The translations under genes were made by a program, and so were the position numbers. DNA of 64,000 bases. Origin: Candidatus Methanoperedenaceae archaeon. Lineage in GTDB: Archaea > Halobacteriota > Methanosarcinia > Methanosarcinales > Methanoperedenaceae. The notes beneath the pieces are model-generated. The model was not told the origin of the DNA. It saw nothing but the letters and a program-made list of their open reading frames with translations, and did no database searches. Position 1 is the stretch's first letter. Every line of letters starts with the position of its first letter. The stretch spans positions 1-64,000 of the forward strand of contig CAVWCX010000018.1 of NCBI GenBank assembly GCA_963753595.1, in the 5' to 3' direction. Shown piece by piece: positions 2,686 through 33,783 of this stretch.

Positions 2686-3054
2686 TTATATACTTAAACG
2701 AGTTCTATCTCGAAGATACACATTAGTAACTCCCTTACTACATAATCTTTTCTTTAATTCGGTATCATTGGTAAGAACTGCCGCGTCCATACCAACTGCC
2801 AGGTCTATTATGATATTATCGGCATACCCGTTCTTTTCAATTATGGTACACCTGTCCAATAAAGATAATGCTATTTTGGCAGCAGCCCTGTCCTTGCTGC
2901 GGCCGGTCGATGCGATTTTTTCAAGCTCTTTTACGGAGGCGCTTGGAACAATATATGAAAAAAATCCCAATTGCTGCAATTCGGAAAATATATCTATCCC
3001 GAATTGTCCCGGGATCATCAAACCATTTGTATCTATGATCACTTTCGATCTCAT
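2686..3054 (-). CDS. PIN-domain protein (Fcf1-like)
   Basis: VIIDTNGLM...SVKELEK...ADNII...[11 protein letters not shown]; canonical position between eIF2g and rpoE. Confidence 0.88.
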
Positions 3055-4280
3055 TTATATTCTTTCAATACACCTGAACCGATAAGCCTCCAGCGCGCGC
3101 CTACACGCCGGCTGATCGCGATATGGGAACCTTTATCTGCGCATATTGGTCTTTTAAGCTTGACTTCTGCATCCATAGGCCTTGCGCTTGTGACGACTCC
3201 AATCGTCGTCGCGGTTCCCAGATTCAGCATTAAAGGCTCATTTGAACGTATTGGTTCAACTGTGGATTCATCATTTACCCCGACCACCCGTTCAAGAAGT
3301 TTTGTTTCCATTACAAAACCTTCAATTGTCGGAGGTAATTTTCCCGGAATACCTGCAACCTGCCCTACAAGCGCATCACTTTTTGTGATCGAGGGATCAA
3401 GTTTAGTGCCAATCCCTATAAGTCCTCCCGGTCTTGCTTCTTCAAGTTCCCCTTTCCCCGCGTGGATAGTTGTGATAACCGTTTTTATTGGGACCCATTT
3501 GACAGTTCCGCCAGTTTCGACTTTTCTGCCAGGCCTCATTTCAATTTCATCACCGGGCTGGAAAACACCACAATTCAAGGAACCGCCGATCGCCCCTCCT
3601 TTTAGATCTTCAGGAAGAGTACCAGGCCTGTTTATGTCGAAAGAACGTGCAACGAACATTAAAGGTGATTTTTTAACATCATGCTCCTGCGTAGGGATAT
3701 ATTTTTCAATAGCTTCGATGACCAGATCGATATTCGCGTTCTGCTGGGCAGAAACCGGTATTATCGGAGCATTTTCTGCAACTGTTCCTTTCACGAAAGC
3801 CTTTATCTGGTTAAAATTTTCAAGCACTTTCTCACGCGGGACAATGTCGATCTTGTTCTGGATAATAATAATGTTCTTTATCCCGAGAATATTCAATGCC
3901 ATCAGATGCTCTTTTGTCTGTGGCTGAGGACAATTTTCATTTGCTGCGATAACAAGAAGCGCGCCATCCATGAGCGCTGCGCCTGATAACATTGTCGCCA
4001 TCAGTGTTTCATGACCTGGTGAGTCCACAAATGATATCGAGCGAAGAACATCAGTTTTAGCCCCGCATTTATCACATACTTCTTTGACAGTAAAACTCTC
4101 TGGTTCCGCGCAGTCAGGACATTTCCTGAGTACTATATCCGCATAACCAAGCCGGATCGAAATACCTCGTTTTATCTCTTCGCTGTGCCGGTCAGTCCAC
4201 GTACCTGAAAGTGCCTTGACAAGAGTGGTCTTGCCGTGGTCTACATGTCCTACAATACCAATATTTACAACAGGTTGCAA
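3051..4280 (-). CDS. eif2g: Translation initiation factor 2 gamma subunit
   Basis: [28 protein letters not shown] and WRLIGSG motifs. Confidence 0.98.
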
Positions 4281-4334
4281 TGAAATCCTCCGAAAATGAT
4301 GCTCCTACATTAGGCTCTTTGTATTTAATGGCTT

Positions 4335-4769
4335 TTACTTTAAAGTCCTTTCCATTTTCATCACTGTCTGCCTGCAAATATCATACTTATCACACTGTGC
4401 GCAATCATTCCAGATGATTTTTTTCTCGCTGTTTTGAAGCCTTTTAAATCCTTTCTTCTCAAAAAAAACAGGCGATGTGGTACGAAGATAAACAGTATCT
4501 GTCAAATCTGCCGCACGTTTTAAGATAGAATCTACAAGTTTTGAACCCACACCCCTGTTACGATAAGATGGAAGAATCGCTATTGAACGCAATTCCACTA
4601 TATCCCCCGGATCAAGACAGGCGCATCCTATTACCTTATTATTTGTTTGTGCAACTATGAATTCAGGCAGGTTTTTCTCAACATTTTCCGTGTCAAGATA
4701 ATAAAAAGAAAGGATCGTTCTTATATCCTTCAAATCTGCCTGTGTTGCCTTTCTGATGTCGATATCCAT
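4335..4769 (-). CDS. GNAT N-acetyltransferase (ArgA-like)
   Basis: VELRSIAILPSYRNRGVGSKLV; FFEKKGF; C-terminal KIIWNDCAQC...C. Confidence 0.85.
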   Translation of the reverse strand: MDIDIRKATQADLKDIRTILSFYYLDTENVEKNLPEFIVAQTNNKVIGCACLDPGDIVELRSIAILPSYRNRGVGSKLVDSILKRAADLTDTVYLRTTSPVFFEKKGFKRLQNSEKKIIWNDCAQCDKYDICRQTVMKMERTLK

Positions 4770-28993: not shown

Positions 28994-29110
28994 AAGTTTC
29001 CCTCATTATTAAGATTAATACATCAATAGATGAAAGTAGTATTTAAATTTATTTTTAATTTTTGCGGTGGTTTTGAGAATAAAGTGAAGAGTAGCCTAAT
29101 GAAAACGATC

Positions 29111-29400
29111 AAAAAAAAAAGGTTATACGGAGACGTTGTTGTTACAGGGTACAACCTCTAGTTTCACTTTCGGCTTCATTCTTTATAAGCCTAGGCGCGC
29201 CTAGCAATCGCAGACGCTCAGGAATAACCTTATCAATCCCCAATAACTTAGCGGCATTTTGAACGTAATCGTTTAATACGAGTGGTAATGAGCGCCGCAC
29301 CAAGCACGCCTCCCAAAGGGTTCGAATCCACCTGCGGGCGCGTACTGCGGGAGGCTGAGCGACTATCCCCCGGCGCTCGGAAAGTCGCGGTGATTTCTCA
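29111..29400 (-). ncRNA. Candidate structured ncRNA 2 (multi-stem, U10 tail)
   Basis: Stems 29359-64/29383-88, 29308-14/29349-55 and 29210-20/29289-98; palindrome 29191-29204; terminal hairpin 29121-28/29149-56, then T10 on the minus strand. GC-rich in AT-rich surroundings. Confidence 0.5.
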
Positions 29401-29445
29401 CGCTGTTCTTTTTCCATGAAGAGGATGCGCAACTTTTGTTCACGC

Positions 29446-29543
29446 AAAAAAATCCGGCGCCCGCCCTTTATCAAATGCAGTGCGTTTGCCCCGAAATGCT
29501 CGGCCGGGCGGGAATAATATATTTCCCCGGGGAGACAAGCGCC
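29446..29543 (-). ncRNA. Candidate structured ncRNA 1 (about 90-100 nt, end-paired, U7 tail)
   Basis: 5' GGCGCUUGUC pairs with 3' GGCGGGCGCC through G-U wobbles (minus strand only); internal hairpins; TATA-like TTTAAT about 25 nt upstream; T7 downstream. Confidence 0.55.
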
Positions 29544-29616
29544 AATAATTATAACATTATAAAGATTAAATTATAGGCGCCAGTGCATCTGTAATGAAGT
29601 AATTTCGGATTTTGAA

Positions 29617-29646
29617 ACCGCAGATGAACGCTGATAAACGCAGATT
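29617..29646 (+). repeat. Half copy of a 9-mer repeat (CGCAGAT type)
   Basis: ACCGCAGATGAACGCTGATAAACGCAGATT: three units, no inverted arm visible. Confidence 0.65.
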
Positions 29647-29749
29647 TATATAATATCATATGCGGCGCACAAATATATTTCCTTAAGAGTTACTGGTTGC
29701 GTTAATTATTTAATTTATTCTTGAGAAAATGTTCATCCCTAGAAAAATC

Positions 29750-29769
29750 AACCACAGAGTCCACAGAGA
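29750..29769. repeat. Left part of a CACAGAG-type palindromic repeat interrupted by IS110
   Basis: AACCACAGAGTCCACAGAGA; rejoins 31504-31553 to give a complete 3+3-unit palindrome. Confidence 0.8.
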
Positions 29770-29775
29770 ACGTAC

Positions 29776-29787
29776 TATTAAACCTTT
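29776..29787 (-). promoter_or_regulatory. Outward-facing archaeal BRE/TATA (AAAGGTTTAATA) at the IS110 right end
   Basis: Same 12-mer as the promoter-like motif at about 26716-26727; lies 6 bp inside the core. Confidence 0.55.
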
Positions 29788-30026
29788 GGTTTGACAAGTC
29801 CAATATTTTATCTGAAAAGGGGGACATTCCGCTGTCCCCCTTAAACCCCCTTTCGGTTAATCGTCTGCTGACGACACCCGGCAAGGGGTGTCGTCCTCGA
29901 CTCTCATTTTTATCAAGATAGAGGCTACCTGGGACTGTAATCAACTGTCTTTATTAATCAAAATAGCCAATATAGTCTCCACTAATATTGGTATTGTTTG
30001 GTCAATTCCCTTTCTAAAATAACTAC

Positions 30027-31235
30027 TTAATTTGGTTGGATCTGATACTCCTTATTATTCTTCAACACCCAGAACACTATTCTCAATAATTTTGCAGCTG
30101 TAGCGTTTAGAGCAGAATAATGATGCTTTCCTTCGCTAACCTTCTTATCATAAAATCGCTTCAGGTTATCATCGTTCATCCTTGCAACATTTGCTGCCAG
30201 AAAAAGAGCTTGACGAAGCAGCGGAGATCCTCTCTTAGAAATGGGACCTGTCTTATTCTCAAATCTCCCTGATTGACTGATGACAGGATCAAGACCTGCA
30301 AATGCGATCAATTTCTTTACACTTGTAAACCTGTCCACATTTGCGATTTCACCTAGAATAATTGGACCTAATATTCCACTAATACCCGGTACAGACATTA
30401 TCTTTGAATCAAAAGATTTCATTACATTCTTTATTTTCTTTTCGATGATTTCATTTTGTTCATCATAAAGTTCTATTTGTGCTATCAGAGTCTTTATTTC
30501 AATGCTGATTATTGATTCCAATTCTGGCATAGCCAATATATTCCCTGCATGAGCATAAATTTCCTCAGCTTTATTGCGGGTAATCTGCGAGTGGCTTACA
30601 TTCTGAACCTGTTCATAAAAATCCTCAAAAGTTCTCATTAATAATTTTGAAGGTGCTGTATATTTTTTTAAAATCATTATTGATGTTTTTCCAAAAACCG
30701 TTGGTATTATAGACTTATAACCAGGCCAGATAATATCGAGATTCCGTACCAGTTGTATTTTGCATCTACTTCGTTTTTCTATAAGTCTGTGGCGTACCCG
30801 AACTAATTCCCTCAATTGATAAATGTTTAAATTCTGGATCCCTTTTGCAAGTGGTGGTTCTGAGAAACGAAGCATATCTGCAATGATTGCAGAATCTATT
30901 GGATCTGTTTTTGTCTTTCGAATATTCATTTTACGGAAGCCATTGGTTTGAATAGGGTTGTAGAGCCTGATCTTATGTCCGTCCCTTCTCAGAGCTGAAT
31001 ATAAAGGCAGGTAATAAATCCCTGTTGCTTCCAGCCCAAAAACCACATCGTTGTTCTGTGGATTTTTCGATTTTATCTTGTCAATTGTTTCATACAACTT
31101 GTTCAGATCTGCTTTTGTGTTTGTTATCTGAAATCGCTTAACTAAATCATTCCCGCCCTGGTCTTTTATGCAGACATCACATTTGTCTTTTGAAACATCT
31201 ATCCCGATATACAAAACTTCAGTATTATTTTTCAT
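30027..31235 (-). CDS. IS110-family recombinase/transposase (DEDD)
   Basis: YIGIDVSK, LEATGIY, KTKTDPIDS, SVPGIS, AFAGLDPVISQSG, ISKRGSPLLRQAL. Confidence 0.96.
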   Translation of the reverse strand: MKNNTEVLYIGIDVSKDKCDVCIKDQGGNDLVKRFQITNTKADLNKLYETIDKIKSKNPQNNDVVFGLEATGIYYLPLYSALRRDGHKIRLYNPIQTNGFRKMNIRKTKTDPIDSAIIADMLRFSEPPLAKGIQNLNIYQLRELVRVRHRLIEKRSRCKIQLVRNLDIIWPGYKSIIPTVFGKTSIMILKKYTAPSKLLMRTFEDFYEQVQNVSHSQITRNKAEEIYAHAGNILAMPELESIISIEIKTLIAQIELYDEQNEIIEKKIKNVMKSFDSKIMSVPGISGILGPIILGEIANVDRFTSVKKLIAFAGLDPVISQSGRFENKTGPISKRGSPLLRQALFLAANVARMNDDNLKRFYDKKVSEGKHHYSALNATAAKLLRIVFWVLKNNKEYQIQPN

Positions 31236-31269
31236 CTTTTTTGACCTCCTTCTTATTTTTTATAATAGT

Positions 31270-31465
31270 CAGGTCGAGAGAGTTATTTCCCTACTGCATT
31301 CCTTTTTAACACAAGCTCGCGAGTTATATGTGGAACATTTATATATGTCCAAAACGTACTCATTCGTGTAGTTGAAAGGAAGAGAGGGCAACAGGTTCTC
31401 TGACGGGAACAGATCCCAAGCGCAATGGTTGTTATCCCTCTCGACCTACTTTATGTAGGTAGCAA
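31270..31465 (-). ncRNA. Putative IS110 bridge RNA (5' hairpin, target-binding loop, donor-binding loop)
   Basis: Hairpin 31444-60; target loop closed by 31384-93/31430-40 with guides UGCGCU and CAGAGA; donor loop closed by 31300-14/31364-80 with guide AGUACGUU identical to the element end (29769-76). Confidence 0.72.
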
Positions 31466-31503
31466 GAACGTTTTAATTGTTCCTGCGAAAATAGTGTATA
31501 TAC

Positions 31504-31553
31504 GAGCACAGAGCCATGACGCTTTTCTCTGTGTACTCTGCGCTCTCTGTGGT
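31504..31553. repeat. Right part of the CACAGAG-type palindromic repeat
   Basis: GAGCACAGAG-spacer-CTCTGTGTACTCTGCGCTCTCTGTGGT. Confidence 0.8.
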
Positions 31554-31582
31554 TTTTCATATCAGACGATAACTTCAAGCCA

Positions 31583-31828
31583 TTAAGCCATTTCCCGGAT
31601 ACTAATTAAACCATGTTTATAGACAATGGTTTTCATCGGTTTTTTAGATTTGATATCCTTGGTTTCCACCAAAATAAGTTCATACTTTTCATAACCAGTC
31701 AATATCCCGGTTATTGTTTTGCCGCTCAAAGTTTCGCAAACAATTACTTTATTCATAAAATCAGACAAATATTTATCTGGCTTCTGCGACCCTTCATCTT
31801 TATTTTTTTGTTCTCCAGCCATATTCAT
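31583..31828 (-). CDS. hfq: Bacterial-type Hfq-like (Sm-fold) RNA chaperone
   Basis: Sm1-like V...LSGKTITGILTGYEKYELIL and the Hfq Sm2 signature IVYKHGLISI (YKH motif rather than the archaeal SmAP RG motif). Confidence 0.8.
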   Translation of the reverse strand: MNMAGEQKNKDEGSQKPDKYLSDFMNKVIVCETLSGKTITGILTGYEKYELILVETKDIKSKKPMKTIVYKHGLISIREMA

Positions 31829-31943
31829 ATCACACCATATTCAATCAAAAAACAACACTAAGCTCATTGTTAAAACAACAATTCCAACCATGGGCTTAAT
31901 TTATAAAAGGTTTTACTTTGTTAAGCTATCACTGTTCCATATA

Positions 31944-32096
31944 TTATATCGTTTCGGTATTTGCAGAATGGCACTCTGGACATTTTGGATTAGTACCTAT
32001 TCCCTTAAATTGTTTCTCACAATCTTTGCACTTATATCTGCGTGGCACTATGCCTTCGGCAATATCGATATTAAAAGCGTCTCCAACTGAACACAT
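31944..32096 (-). CDS. Small zinc-ribbon protein (50 aa)
   Basis: Manual translation MCSVGDAFNIDIAEGIVPRRYKCKDCEKQFKGIGTNPKCPECHSANTETI; strong SD GGAGGTGA upstream. Confidence 0.8.
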   Translation of the reverse strand: MCSVGDAFNIDIAEGIVPRRYKCKDCEKQFKGIGTNPKCPECHSANTETI

Positions 32097-32236
32097 AATT
32101 TCACCTCCGTATTTATTTTTTAACTCTTATAATCTATTCTTTGTTTTCTTTATCTTAACTCGTGATAAAGAACACCTATATGATATATGTAATTTTTCTA
32201 ATAGAAAAAAATTAGTAAAAGTACCTAAATGCTATT

Positions 32237-33783
32237 CATTGGTCATCGGTTAAGCCCACCAGTCATCCCTGAACCGATGTCTACTGACATGGGGATCAAG
32301 TGCCTGACTTGAATAGACATTCATAACAGTCAGAATAGTTCTTTCAATCCCATAATACCGAAGTATCAGAGTAAGCTGTTTATCAGCATTTTCGGCAAAA
32401 ATCGTACTCCATCGCAATTGTGTAAAACGAGAACCAATATCTTTTGGATTATACTTCCGAACTAACGAATATATTCTCCTGCTTACTAAAAGGGTAAGAA
32501 TCGATATCCAGATAAAGGCTTCGATAATTTGTGTGTTCTTTGTATTCACAACATCAAGAGCGTATCTGCTTTTCAGTTCTTTAAAGATCAGTTCAATATC
32601 CCATCTTGCTCCATAGAGTTTCGCAACATCCTCAGCCTCCAAAACATCTTTTGCAATATTAGTAAGATAGACATGATACTTTTCTTCATCTTCATTAAAA
32701 ACCGCTACCAATCGGAACTGTTCAGTATCCATTCTTGTCTTACTTTTCCCATTATAATTCGGTTTCTTGAATGAGACCTCAACTTCAACATCGAGTACTT
32801 GTCTTTTTAACTTGGGGAGAATTTCACTGATATATTTCCCTTTCACATCAATACTATTCCCCCGACACGTATTATGCACATCAACAATAAGAGGATCCGC
32901 ACTTCCTTTCAATCTGGACACGAAGTAACCGCCATTCTCCTTGATTTTAGCAAAGAGTAGATGTTTGTAGAAACCAAGATCGATAAGAAGAATTCTATCT
33001 TTTATCCATGGACCTATTCGCAGAGTCTTCAATTCATTTGTACTTTCAGGATGAATAGTGATGCTTTTTGGGCTGTTTGCCACGGCACTTACCAACAAAC
33101 TCACTTTAACGCCAGCTGCTACCGTTCTGGAACGTGCTGCCGGGAATTTTTTAGCAAGAGACTTATGCAATCTGATAATTGTGCTGTCCTGTATCATTAC
33201 ATCCTGGAATTTAGCTATTTTTTCATTGAGAACTTTGGTTTGTTCCTTAGCAAGCTGTTCAATTCCATGAGTTACACATAGCCTCAGGAATGCAACAAGT
33301 TCAGGTGTGAATCTTTCATACCAGCTGCTGTCGCTCAGTTTTTTATTGGAAAACGTTTCATAATTCCGTTTGACAAAGGCTAGATTTCTTGCAAGGCGAA
33401 CACCATAACTATTGACAAGAACCCAAAACATTTCTACGGCTGTCACTTTTCTCTCTCTTTCTATGAGGCCGGTTTCTTTTGCTGCTTGTTTCAGCCATTC
33501 TGGAGGGAATAGTGTGTAGAGGTCTTTTTCAATTATATCGGGGTCATAAGATGGGATTTTTGTGTTTGGTTCTTTGGGCTTTTTCATGCTACTGATCCTC
33601 TTTCTAATTTTAATACAGTAAAATTAGAATTTTTAAGTAATATATGCATGCTAAGACGATAAATGCTTCGCTATATAACGATTATTTCAACTGGAAACCC
33701 AAAGCTATTGACTAAAAACGAGTAATTCTGCAATCTTTTTTGAGATAATTCATTGAGCAGAATTCCTTAACCGATGACCAATG
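32237..33783 (-). mobile_element. IS4-family (ISH8-group) insertion sequence, 1547 bp
   Basis: Perfect 18-bp IRs CATTGGTCATCGGTTAAG (32237-54 / 33766-83); 10-bp TSD AAATGCTATT (32227-36, 33784-93). Confidence 0.95.
32250..33587 (-). CDS. IS4-family DDE transposase
   Basis: QDSTIIRL, LIDLGFY, YGARWDIELIFKELK (YREK motif). Confidence 0.96.
   Translation of the reverse strand: MKKPKEPNTKIPSYDPDIIEKDLYTLFPPEWLKQAAKETGLIERERKVTAVEMFWVLVNSYGVRLARNLAFVKRNYETFSNKKLSDSSWYERFTPELVAFLRLCVTHGIEQLAKEQTKVLNEKIAKFQDVMIQDSTIIRLHKSLAKKFPAARSRTVAAGVKVSLLVSAVANSPKSITIHPESTNELKTLRIGPWIKDRILLIDLGFYKHLLFAKIKENGGYFVSRLKGSADPLIVDVHNTCRGNSIDVKGKYISEILPKLKRQVLDVEVEVSFKKPNYNGKSKTRMDTEQFRLVAVFNEDEEKYHVYLTNIAKDVLEAEDVAKLYGARWDIELIFKELKSRYALDVVNTKNTQIIEAFIWISILTLLVSRRIYSLVRKYNPKDIGSRFTQLRWSTIFAENADKQLTLILRYYGIERTILTVMNVYSSQALDPHVSRHRFRDDWWA

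Follow-up and report, generated by a model that had tools for sequence, protein, structure and literature searches.

Bridge recombinases, the enzymes of IS110-group insertion sequences, are under development as programmable tools to insert, invert and remove large DNA segments, and to our knowledge all of those characterised are bacterial. Here we describe an element of this kind from a methane-oxidising archaeon, found in a stretch of 64,000 nucleotides (nt), referred to below as the window, that makes up positions 1 to 64,000 of contig CAVWCX010000018.1 in the Candidatus Methanoperedenaceae archaeon assembly GCA_963753595.1. That IS110 elements use bridge RNAs is established, and structural models predict such RNAs in 85.7% of the catalogued IS110-group elements. 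One study catalogued 662 archaeal IS110 recombinases, their RNAs lying outside its analysis, and in a 2026 preprint on the large-scale mining of bridge RNAs archaea are named solely among the input data. Our literature searches returned no paper describing an archaeal bridge RNA, and the family described here may sit unremarked in published ortholog tables. The evidence below makes it very probable that the window holds an intact IS110-group element of a Methanoperedens-like archaeon, guided by a bridge RNA as IS621 is.

The element, its insertion site and its recombinase

An intact IS110-family element occupies 31504..29769 of the window (features are collected in Table 1), inside a palindrome resembling the repetitive extragenic palindromic (REP) sequences. 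On the minus strand its left junction reads CTCTGTGC-TC-GTATATAC and its right junction reads AATAGTACGT-TC-TCTGTGG, and the two ends, CGTATATAC... and ...AGTACGTT, form no terminal inverted repeat. A BLAST search with the element region against its own genome (37 contigs, 2.89 Mb, 92% complete) found the element complete once, and the flanking repeat as 23 partial matches on 15 contigs. Contig C7 (G000:C7) holds an empty site, reading GCTCTGTGCTCTCTGTGGACTCTGTGG, in which both flanks abut and which overlaps both junctions by 2 nt; the element has no long target duplication. Because the flanks abut there, the length of the insert is fixed at 1736 bp, and from the same site it can be read that the element split the right arm of the palindromic repeat. 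Sequencing runs were consulted as assembled contigs only, and none held more than 0.40 of the sampled words; at empty sites the run contigs join 29767 to 31504 (X1 and X3), and they also contain variant copies of the repeat.

The target repeat is a short imperfect palindrome with many copies in the genome, both arms of which can be read at the empty site. Exact TG[CT]GCTCTCTG sites number 14 in the own genome (12 with TGTGC and two with TGCGC), and 13 of them lie within the palindromic repeat. The target that is specified is about 11 bp long, G/T/C-Y-G-Y-T on the left of the presumed crossover and N5 on the right, and it is present in both arms of the palindrome in the own genome. The original prediction, made from the letters of the window, had the element aimed at a multicopy REP-like repeat, and the 23 partial flank matches together with the 13 of 14 sites inside the palindrome bear out that the repeat is multicopy and REP-like.

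The recombinase matches PF01548 at 1.4e-34 and PF02371 at 2.1e-21, and by alignment it has an N-terminal DEDD RuvC-like domain followed by a C-terminal Tnp domain with a catalytic serine. In a phmmer search it aligned in both domains with the IS621 structure 8wt6 (E = 1.3e-21) and with the ISCro4 structure 9t56 (1.1e-19). The active site of IS621, as given in the structural paper, consists of D11, E60, D102, D105 and S241; residues D13, E69, D111, D114 and S333 of the window recombinase align with these, and none of the five varies among seven family proteins with 63-74% identity to it. No HUH nuclease domain was found in the recombinase by the domain scan. Also encoded in the window is the beta subunit of a phenylalanine-tRNA ligase of archaeal type (TIGR00471, 616 bits, the cut-off being 283), and this enzyme, together with the presence of the closest relatives of the element in Methanoperedens assemblies, identifies the host as an archaeon.

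Guide matches in the window copy

The leader upstream of the recombinase gene folds into two domains with large internal loops, called loop 1 and loop 2 below, and we number positions from the T common to both junctions, which is position 0. The motifs on which the original prediction was built, UGCGCU (31424-31419), CAGAGA (31402-31397), AGUACGUU (31360-31353) and AUAUA (31329-31325), are all on the minus strand where it had placed them. UUGCGCU, which lies in loop 1 on the 5' side, reads in the sense of the left target and agrees with its own site at five of the seven positions from -6 to 0, with a U-G wobble at -6 and a C-A mismatch at -3; compared with the minority TGCGC variant of the repeat it is identical at six of seven, and the wobble at -6 makes it compatible at all seven. 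On the 3' side of the same loop, CAGAGA is antisense to T-CTCTG at six of six positions, T(0) included. In loop 2, AGUACGUU equals the last 8 nt of the element, 8/8, which is the match to the left side of the donor that had been proposed.

These matches were set against 3000 shuffled versions of the leader. Of these, 84 equalled the match of 8 nt to the donor end, 729 the antisense match of 6 nt to the right target and 1940 the match of 5 nt to the left target, while 24 equalled the donor and right-target matches jointly. For the window copy alone the loop matches are thus only suggestive, being weakly above chance, and it is the comparison with relatives that decides.

Covariation of loop 1 with insertion flanks

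Relatives of the element were collected by protein search and by leader-motif search. They come from Methanoperedens, ANME-2, Methanocomedens and Methanosarcinaceae assemblies and from metagenome contigs, with 61-76% protein identity; the next relatives have at most 37% protein identity and are mostly bacterial (Clostridia, Planctomycetota and others). A large protein collection holds 120 clusters at 70% identity or more, and those that carry a name are IS110 family transposases of Methanoperedens. Proteins 85-95% identical to the window recombinase are found on other public contigs (P0002-P0010). All copies have the ends T-CGTATATAC... and ...TAGTACG-Y-T in common.

A 16-nt pattern matched at least 119 stretches, mostly by chance and in unrelated bacteria, and only those with a GTATATAC left end were used. 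A loose pattern gave 136 rows. To enter the test of the left guide, a row had to show a left end that could be recognised, a loop that could be parsed and 12 nt or more of flank ending in TC, with a 20-nt flank found in no other row, and 43 distinct insertion events were kept. Excluded were chance pattern matches, duplicate records of one contig, copies truncated at the end of a contig, three copies whose loop is lost to an internal deletion (L033, L143 and L147), and a decayed copy, L101, whose junction is T-T and whose flank is unlike its guide.

In 36 of the 43 insertions, loop and flank have an identical 4-mer at -4 to -1, and these 4-mers fall into five classes (GCGT 18, TTGT 7, CTGT 5, GTGT 4, TCGT 2). 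Mean identity between left guide and flank over seven positions is 4.84, compared with 3.86 +/- 0.13 when the pairings are shuffled. Allowing wobble over -6 to 0, the mean is 6.30 compared with 5.62 +/- 0.10, with 24 events fitting at all seven positions and 14 at six. None of 10,000 shuffles reaches the observed value in either form of the test. The right guide was compared with positions +1 to +5 of the flank in 17 complete elements: it matches at five of five positions in 11 elements, at four in three, at three in two and at two in one. The mean of 4.41 compares with 2.42 +/- 0.30 in shuffled pairings, again with none of 10,000 reaching it. Because +6 matches in none of the 17, the right guide ends at +5. 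A more distant element, L174, with 37% protein identity and outside the clade, obeys the same rule, in that its guide predicts CTCTC and its right flank is CTCTC.

The expectation that loop sequences covary with targets in homologues is therefore borne out on both the left and the right side, by 0 of 10,000 shuffles in each case. The original prediction had further expected other copies to have the same ends and one target, TGYGC-TC-TCTG. The ends are indeed the same; the single target does not hold, as the family contains 23 distinct guide pairs with varied flanks. Judged from these alignments, loop 1 is seen to track both insertion flanks across the family, which would have been naturally retargeted many times.

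Among the relatives are several unusual copies. L030 (about 2690-4400) and L155 (about 900-2950) are independent nested insertions in the right end of a sibling element, at GAAAGTGT-T^A-ATAGTACGC (the caret marks the presumed crossover), and their loops read AUUGUGUU and CUAUUAAC, fitting the site GAAAGTGT-T^A-ATAG. An insertion of this type severs the host sibling copy from its last 9-10 nt. L033, L143 and L147 occupy three sites and have one common internal deletion. It fuses the target loop, on its 5' side, to early codons of the recombinase gene and takes away all remaining parts of the RNA; the three copies resemble non-autonomous derivatives whose spread followed the deletion. Five protein clusters (P0003, P0012, P0013, P0018 and P0028) come solely from contigs of 1733-1743 bp, as long as the element itself, so that either the repeat assembled by itself or circles were sequenced. 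Sibling elements are absent from the own assembly, though their target repeats occur there (ATCCTGT[CT][GC]ATCCTG 27 times and ATCTGCGTTCATCTGCG six times).

Predicted fold of the leader RNA

The minimum free energy (MFE) of the 268-nt leader is -71.1 kcal/mol, compared with -53.4 +/- 4.4 in shuffles (z = -4.0). The fold consists of two hairpins and then two domains, in each of which a basal stem leads through a large internal loop to an inner hairpin. In a hand-drawn version of this structure, 93% of cells are paired across 24 close relatives, compared with 38-53% when the partners are slid; hairpin 2 is paired in 99% of cells and hairpin 1 in 78%.

A covariance model was built from hairpin 2 and both internal-loop domains. 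It matches, at full length and directly 5' of recombinase genes, in L173 and L174 from metagenomes (E about 3e-6 to 3e-5) and in L288, L308 and L295 from Clostridia and Ruminococcaceae assemblies (E 1.6e-5 to 1.7e-3), and gave no match at the other loci searched. The two-loop RNA is thus found upstream of bacterial relatives with 28-37% protein identity. In the model-fitted alignment the five distant RNAs keep the architecture, and of its 42 pairs 12-17 are compensatory and 1-5 broken in each RNA. The inner stem GGGA/UCCC, to take one case, is replaced by GAAG/CUUC or GGAU/AUCC. These compensatory pairs are the best evidence here for what appears to be a real two-loop fold, shared with bacterial IS110 elements.

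The original prediction described one hairpin plus two internal-loop domains, and proposed that the fold be examined for covariation. The two domains are upheld, with a conserved two-loop fold and compensatory pairs in distant relatives, while the single hairpin gives way to two 5' hairpins in the MFE fold and the close clade offers no covariation in its stems. Reverse-strand matches of the covariance model at archaeal loci are partial echoes of hairpins and were set aside. In an RNAalifold consensus, some bases of the left donor guide are paired with loop 2 on its 3' side; these pairs never change on both sides and so speak neither for nor against such a pairing. A scan of 29000-32500 against Rfam 15, with E up to 10, gave three matches at chance level only and no bridge-RNA family.

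Junction genotypes and the core

T(0) is present at every junction compared (43 left and 17 right), and the base preceding it is T or C. Ahead of GTATATAC, 55 of the 56 left junctions listed read T-C. At the 17 right junctions the base after T is C in five, T in six, A in four and G in two, and it equals the base predicted by the guide in 14. Since T-C is nearly fixed at the left junctions while the base after T follows the guide at the right, the C belongs to the left end of the element, the variable base behaves as the right target's first base, and only the T is common. The original prediction had the palindrome split at a 2-bp TC core; the split is confirmed by the empty site on contig C7, the TC core is not, as TC does occur at both junctions of the window copy but only the T is shared across the family.

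The base at -1 is specified by the guide at left junctions, where it is T in 42 of 43, and is specific to the lineage at right junctions, where it is C in 11 of 17 and T in six. In IS621 the core is C8-T9, with a nearly invariant T, a loosely conserved first base and a top-strand cut 3' of the T. By analogy, the simplest reading is that the core here would be Y(-1)T(0), cut after the T. The window copy has CT as its target core and TT as its donor core.

Left junctions keep the -1 base of the target, and right junctions keep the -1 base of the donor along with the +1 base of the target; in a clade with T in its targets, the donor has retained C at -1. Two preprints report top-strand insertion, copy-out and single-stranded intermediates for IS110 elements. 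The persistence of the donor C would fit transfer of the top strand only, and a crossover confined to a single T would fit equally well.

The donor loop, a long-range helix and the right end

No variation is seen in the left donor guide of 24 relatives, and the donor end varies at -1 only. The guide has a U opposite the C found at -1 in 11 of 17 right ends, where it would face G in the clade with C. As the donor guide and the ends hardly vary, no donor covariation is possible. On the 3' side of loop 2, AUAUA is a weak match to TATAT, and part of this stretch varies while the donor end is constant; among the 24 relatives AU-A and CGA are invariant there, and the bases between and before them change. 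Together these may be the two parts of a split right donor guide that would pair with left-end T-C-G and T-A-T. The right donor guide of IS621 also has flipped-out bases. Several registers of a right donor guide against TCGTATATAC were tried, and none was convincing.

A 10-bp long-range helix, AGGUCGAGAG/CUCUCGACCU, is paired in 99.1% of cells in 23-24 relatives, a value that two of 500 shuffles reach, and contains one compensatory pair (UA to CG in four sequences and to UG in three). It uses five bases of the basal stem of the target-binding domain, so that the two cannot form together; the helix may serve to switch the leader between guide RNA and messenger. At the ribosome-binding site AGGUC(GAGA) occurs for a third time.

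In the right end, a conserved block lies about 45 nt past the stop codon, at about 29984-29973, reading UAGUGGAGACUA in the window and UAGUGGAUACUA in most relatives. It is complementary to the terminus AUAGUACGYU (29778-29769) in all 13 aligned right ends, with 10 predicted pairs. A long-range pairing of block and terminus was set aside, as it has no compensatory change. The block is also a small palindrome by itself. Near the terminus, TTAATAG (29783-29777) is conserved, and in a circle junction it would be about 26 nt upstream of the first leader hairpin. This is the usual distance of an archaeal TATA box from the start site. The left end GTATATAC is also TATA-like.

Proposed mechanism and alternative readings

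On the reading that we prefer, transcription of the leader upstream of the recombinase gene would give an RNA about 190 nt long that has two internal loops. The first, loop 1, would read the target: UUGCGCU, with the sense of the left target and the core, would pair with the bottom strand, and CAGAGA-AC, antisense to the core and the right target, would pair with the top strand. Loop 2 would read the joined ends of the element itself, AGUACGUU having the sense of the right-end terminus, and the recombinase, with its DEDD RuvC-like domain and serine-bearing Tnp domain, would exchange strands just 3' of the invariant T. We infer that the guide acts as RNA, and likewise the position of the cut, a circular intermediate and the activity of the element; the natural retargetability of loop 1 is suggested by natural covariation. 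The claim that this is an archaeal IS110 element with an IS621-type bispecific bridge RNA stands, on the covariation of loop 1, the homology to IS621 and the archaeal host.

Several results weigh against this reading. The left guide of the window copy meets its own site with a C-A mismatch at -3 (UGCGC against TGTGC) and fits perfectly at only two of the 14 own-genome sites, and the right guide has AA opposite the CT core. In the family as a whole, 7 of 43 left events are imperfect, including the window copy (GCGC against GTGC), and the covariation of the left guide is limited to -4 and -3, with -2 to 0 hardly varying; 6 of 17 right events are imperfect, and L031, an internally deleted copy, matches at two of five positions only. 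Because the stems are nearly invariant in the close clade, stem covariation among the 24 close relatives is no better than in shuffles, two pairs having changed on both sides, and the alignment of the distant relatives is fitted to the model and so biased toward the modelled structure. No right donor guide was identified among the registers tried. The own assembly yielded one copy only. In the assembled run contigs the circle joint was not seen, which is uninformative either way, and they gave no usable evidence of transcription for the leader; an RNA-library contig covering 31312-31452 belongs to a relative (11 differences and two gaps).

Some of these results are what would be expected if the family uses bridge RNAs and the window copy is an immobile relic, an old insertion kept by drift. 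It is single in its genome, its left guide mismatches its own site at -3 and fits two of 14 sites perfectly, and its circle joint is missing from the assembled contigs. We nevertheless think a relic improbable. The open reading frame (ORF) is intact at 402 amino acids (aa) with five of five catalytic residues, as are both ends, both loops and all stems, and close homologues of its protein (P0002-P0010, mentioned above) are present on other public contigs. A draft assembly collapses repeats, so that one assembled copy is weak evidence of one real copy, and a mismatch of one base is no bar to insertion, as the insertion in the window itself shows.

We also considered whether the leader loops might act as single-stranded end DNA that pairs with the target, as in IS200/IS605. 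The run contigs give no usable evidence that the leader is transcribed, and single-stranded intermediates of IS110 elements are reported in the two preprints cited for them above. It is nonetheless very unlikely, as the recombinase is homologous to that of IS621, where RNA guidance was shown by reconstitution and structures, as the fold that bears the guides is kept by compensatory changes of the RNA type, G-U pairs included, and as the recombinase is without an HUH nuclease domain.

That the protein itself recognises the REP-like repeat, the loop matches being coincidence or shared ancestry, is hardly credible: the target matches of the window copy are at chance by the shuffles above, and relatives in one genome share guides and repeats, which possibly inflates the association, but at least five classes of left guide and many right-guide variants each equal their own flanks, these flanks include non-repeat targets and sibling right ends (L030 and L155), the variable +1 base follows the guide, L174 obeys the same rule at its distance, and proteins 63-74% identical to the window recombinase serve very different targets.

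Bridge-RNA guidance of an intact element is thus the reading we retain. An extended form of it, which we offer tentatively and consider rather unlikely, would join the observations above into an archaeal lineage of bridge recombinases fitted to archaeal expression. In this lineage the conserved terminus of the right end, TTAATAGTACG, would serve as donor site and TATA-like box, transfer in nature would involve the top strand only, the 10-bp helix would be a switch, and L030 and L155 would have been retargeted to sibling right ends.

Features of the locus and neighbouring genes

Near the element, the window contains a gene for an IS4-family transposase at 32250-33587 (minus strand; NF033592, 4.8e-73), 0.7 kb from the IS110 element. 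Between the two is an 81-aa ORF at 31583-31828 (minus strand), with no NCBIfam match. Elsewhere in the genome, a second IS110-like gene, at G000:C3:57574-58000 on the minus strand, is decayed, with its PF01548 match in two parts and an internal TAA stop.

Table 1. Coordinates in the window of the element, its leader RNA and its insertion site.
Feature	Position	Strand	Basis or remark
Whole IS110-family element, 1736 bp	29769..31504	minus	full copy, empty site, ends recurring in relatives
Left end of element	starts C31504, CGTATATAC...	minus	first base is C31504
Right end of element	ends T29769, ...AGTACGTT	minus	last base is T29769
Left part of split REP-like palindrome	31505..31553	minus	ends ...CTCTGTG-C31506-T31505 (left target and target core)
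Right part of split palindrome	29750..29768	minus	right target CTCTG at 29768-29764
Target sequence around presumed crossover (marked ^)	GCTCTGYGCT^CTCTGTGG	-	palindrome site
Recombinase gene, 402 aa	30027..31235	minus	ORF; PF01548, PF02371; structure alignments
GGAGGU, Shine-Dalgarno-like motif	31249-31244	minus	ahead of recombinase gene
Two 5' hairpins of leader	31486-31462, 31460-31444	minus	MFE fold; relatives
Target-binding domain (basal stem GAGAGGG/CCCUCUC, internal loop, inner stem GGGA/UCCC)	31382..31442	minus	fold, guide-flank covariation, compensatory stems in distant relatives
Left target guide UUGCGCU	31425-31419	minus	loop 1, 5' side
Right target guide CAGAGA, then AC	31402-31397	minus	loop 1, 3' side
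Donor-binding domain	31300..31380	minus	fold
Left donor guide AGUACGUU	31360-31353	minus	loop 2, 5' side; equals last 8 nt of element, 29776-29769
Candidate split right donor guide AUA...CGA	within 31329-31317	minus	inferred
CUCUCGACCU, 3' arm of 10-bp long-range helix	31271..31280	minus	partner AGGUCGAGAG at 31447-31438
Right non-coding end, 258 nt	29769..30026	minus	sequence and alignment of relatives
Left donor sequence AGTACG and donor core TT	29776-29769	minus	inside right end

Comparison with known systems

If the reading given here is correct, the same RNA-guided logic extends to methane-cycling archaea, with the known mechanism unchanged. The 23 guide pairs on near-identical scaffolds would amount to a natural record of retargeting, from which the changeable and the unchangeable positions of the loops can be told apart. 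The genotypes of the junctions are relevant to the debate between single-strand and double-strand transfer. The family could seed a genome-engineering tool for Methanoperedens and the Methanosarcinales, which are hard to manipulate. It would also provide a concrete archaeal IS110 RNA for comparison with C/D-box guide RNAs, given the relationship that has been proposed between IS110 and Nop5.

In the case of CazIS110-1 of Caloranaerobacter azorensis and the models of single-strand transfer, the resemblance is that junction genotypes here follow the top strand; unlike that work, ours is a population footprint and not an experiment, and a crossover at a single T explains it equally. ISPpu10 of Pseudomonas putida is similar in that a bridge RNA aims an IS110 element at a multicopy intergenic sequence (10.64898/2026.03.19.712850). 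Its host is bacterial, and the likeness is one of description only.

The closest described systems are IS621 of Escherichia coli and ISCro4/IS622. The present element has the same two domains and catalytic residues, a predicted guide RNA in the left end upstream of the gene, with a 5' stem-loop region, a target loop and a donor loop in that order, an invariant T at the presumed crossover, and REP-like repeats as targets. It differs from them in its archaeal host and its distant protein (phmmer E about 1e-21; 402 aa compared with 328-341-aa PDB chains). The first core base is C or T here and often differs between target and donor, and the part of the left guide that covaries is shorter, being limited to -4 and -3. 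A sigma-70 promoter at the junction, moreover, is impossible in an archaeon, and the RNA has no match in Rfam 15. The non-coding ends are near equal here (right 258 nt, left 268 nt), whereas right ends in the IS110 group are typically short. With the IS1111 group of the IS110 family the element has in common the recombinase family and an RNA-guided choice of site; the RNA of IS1111 elements, however, is found in a long right end with long subterminal inverted repeats, whereas here the loops are in the left end.

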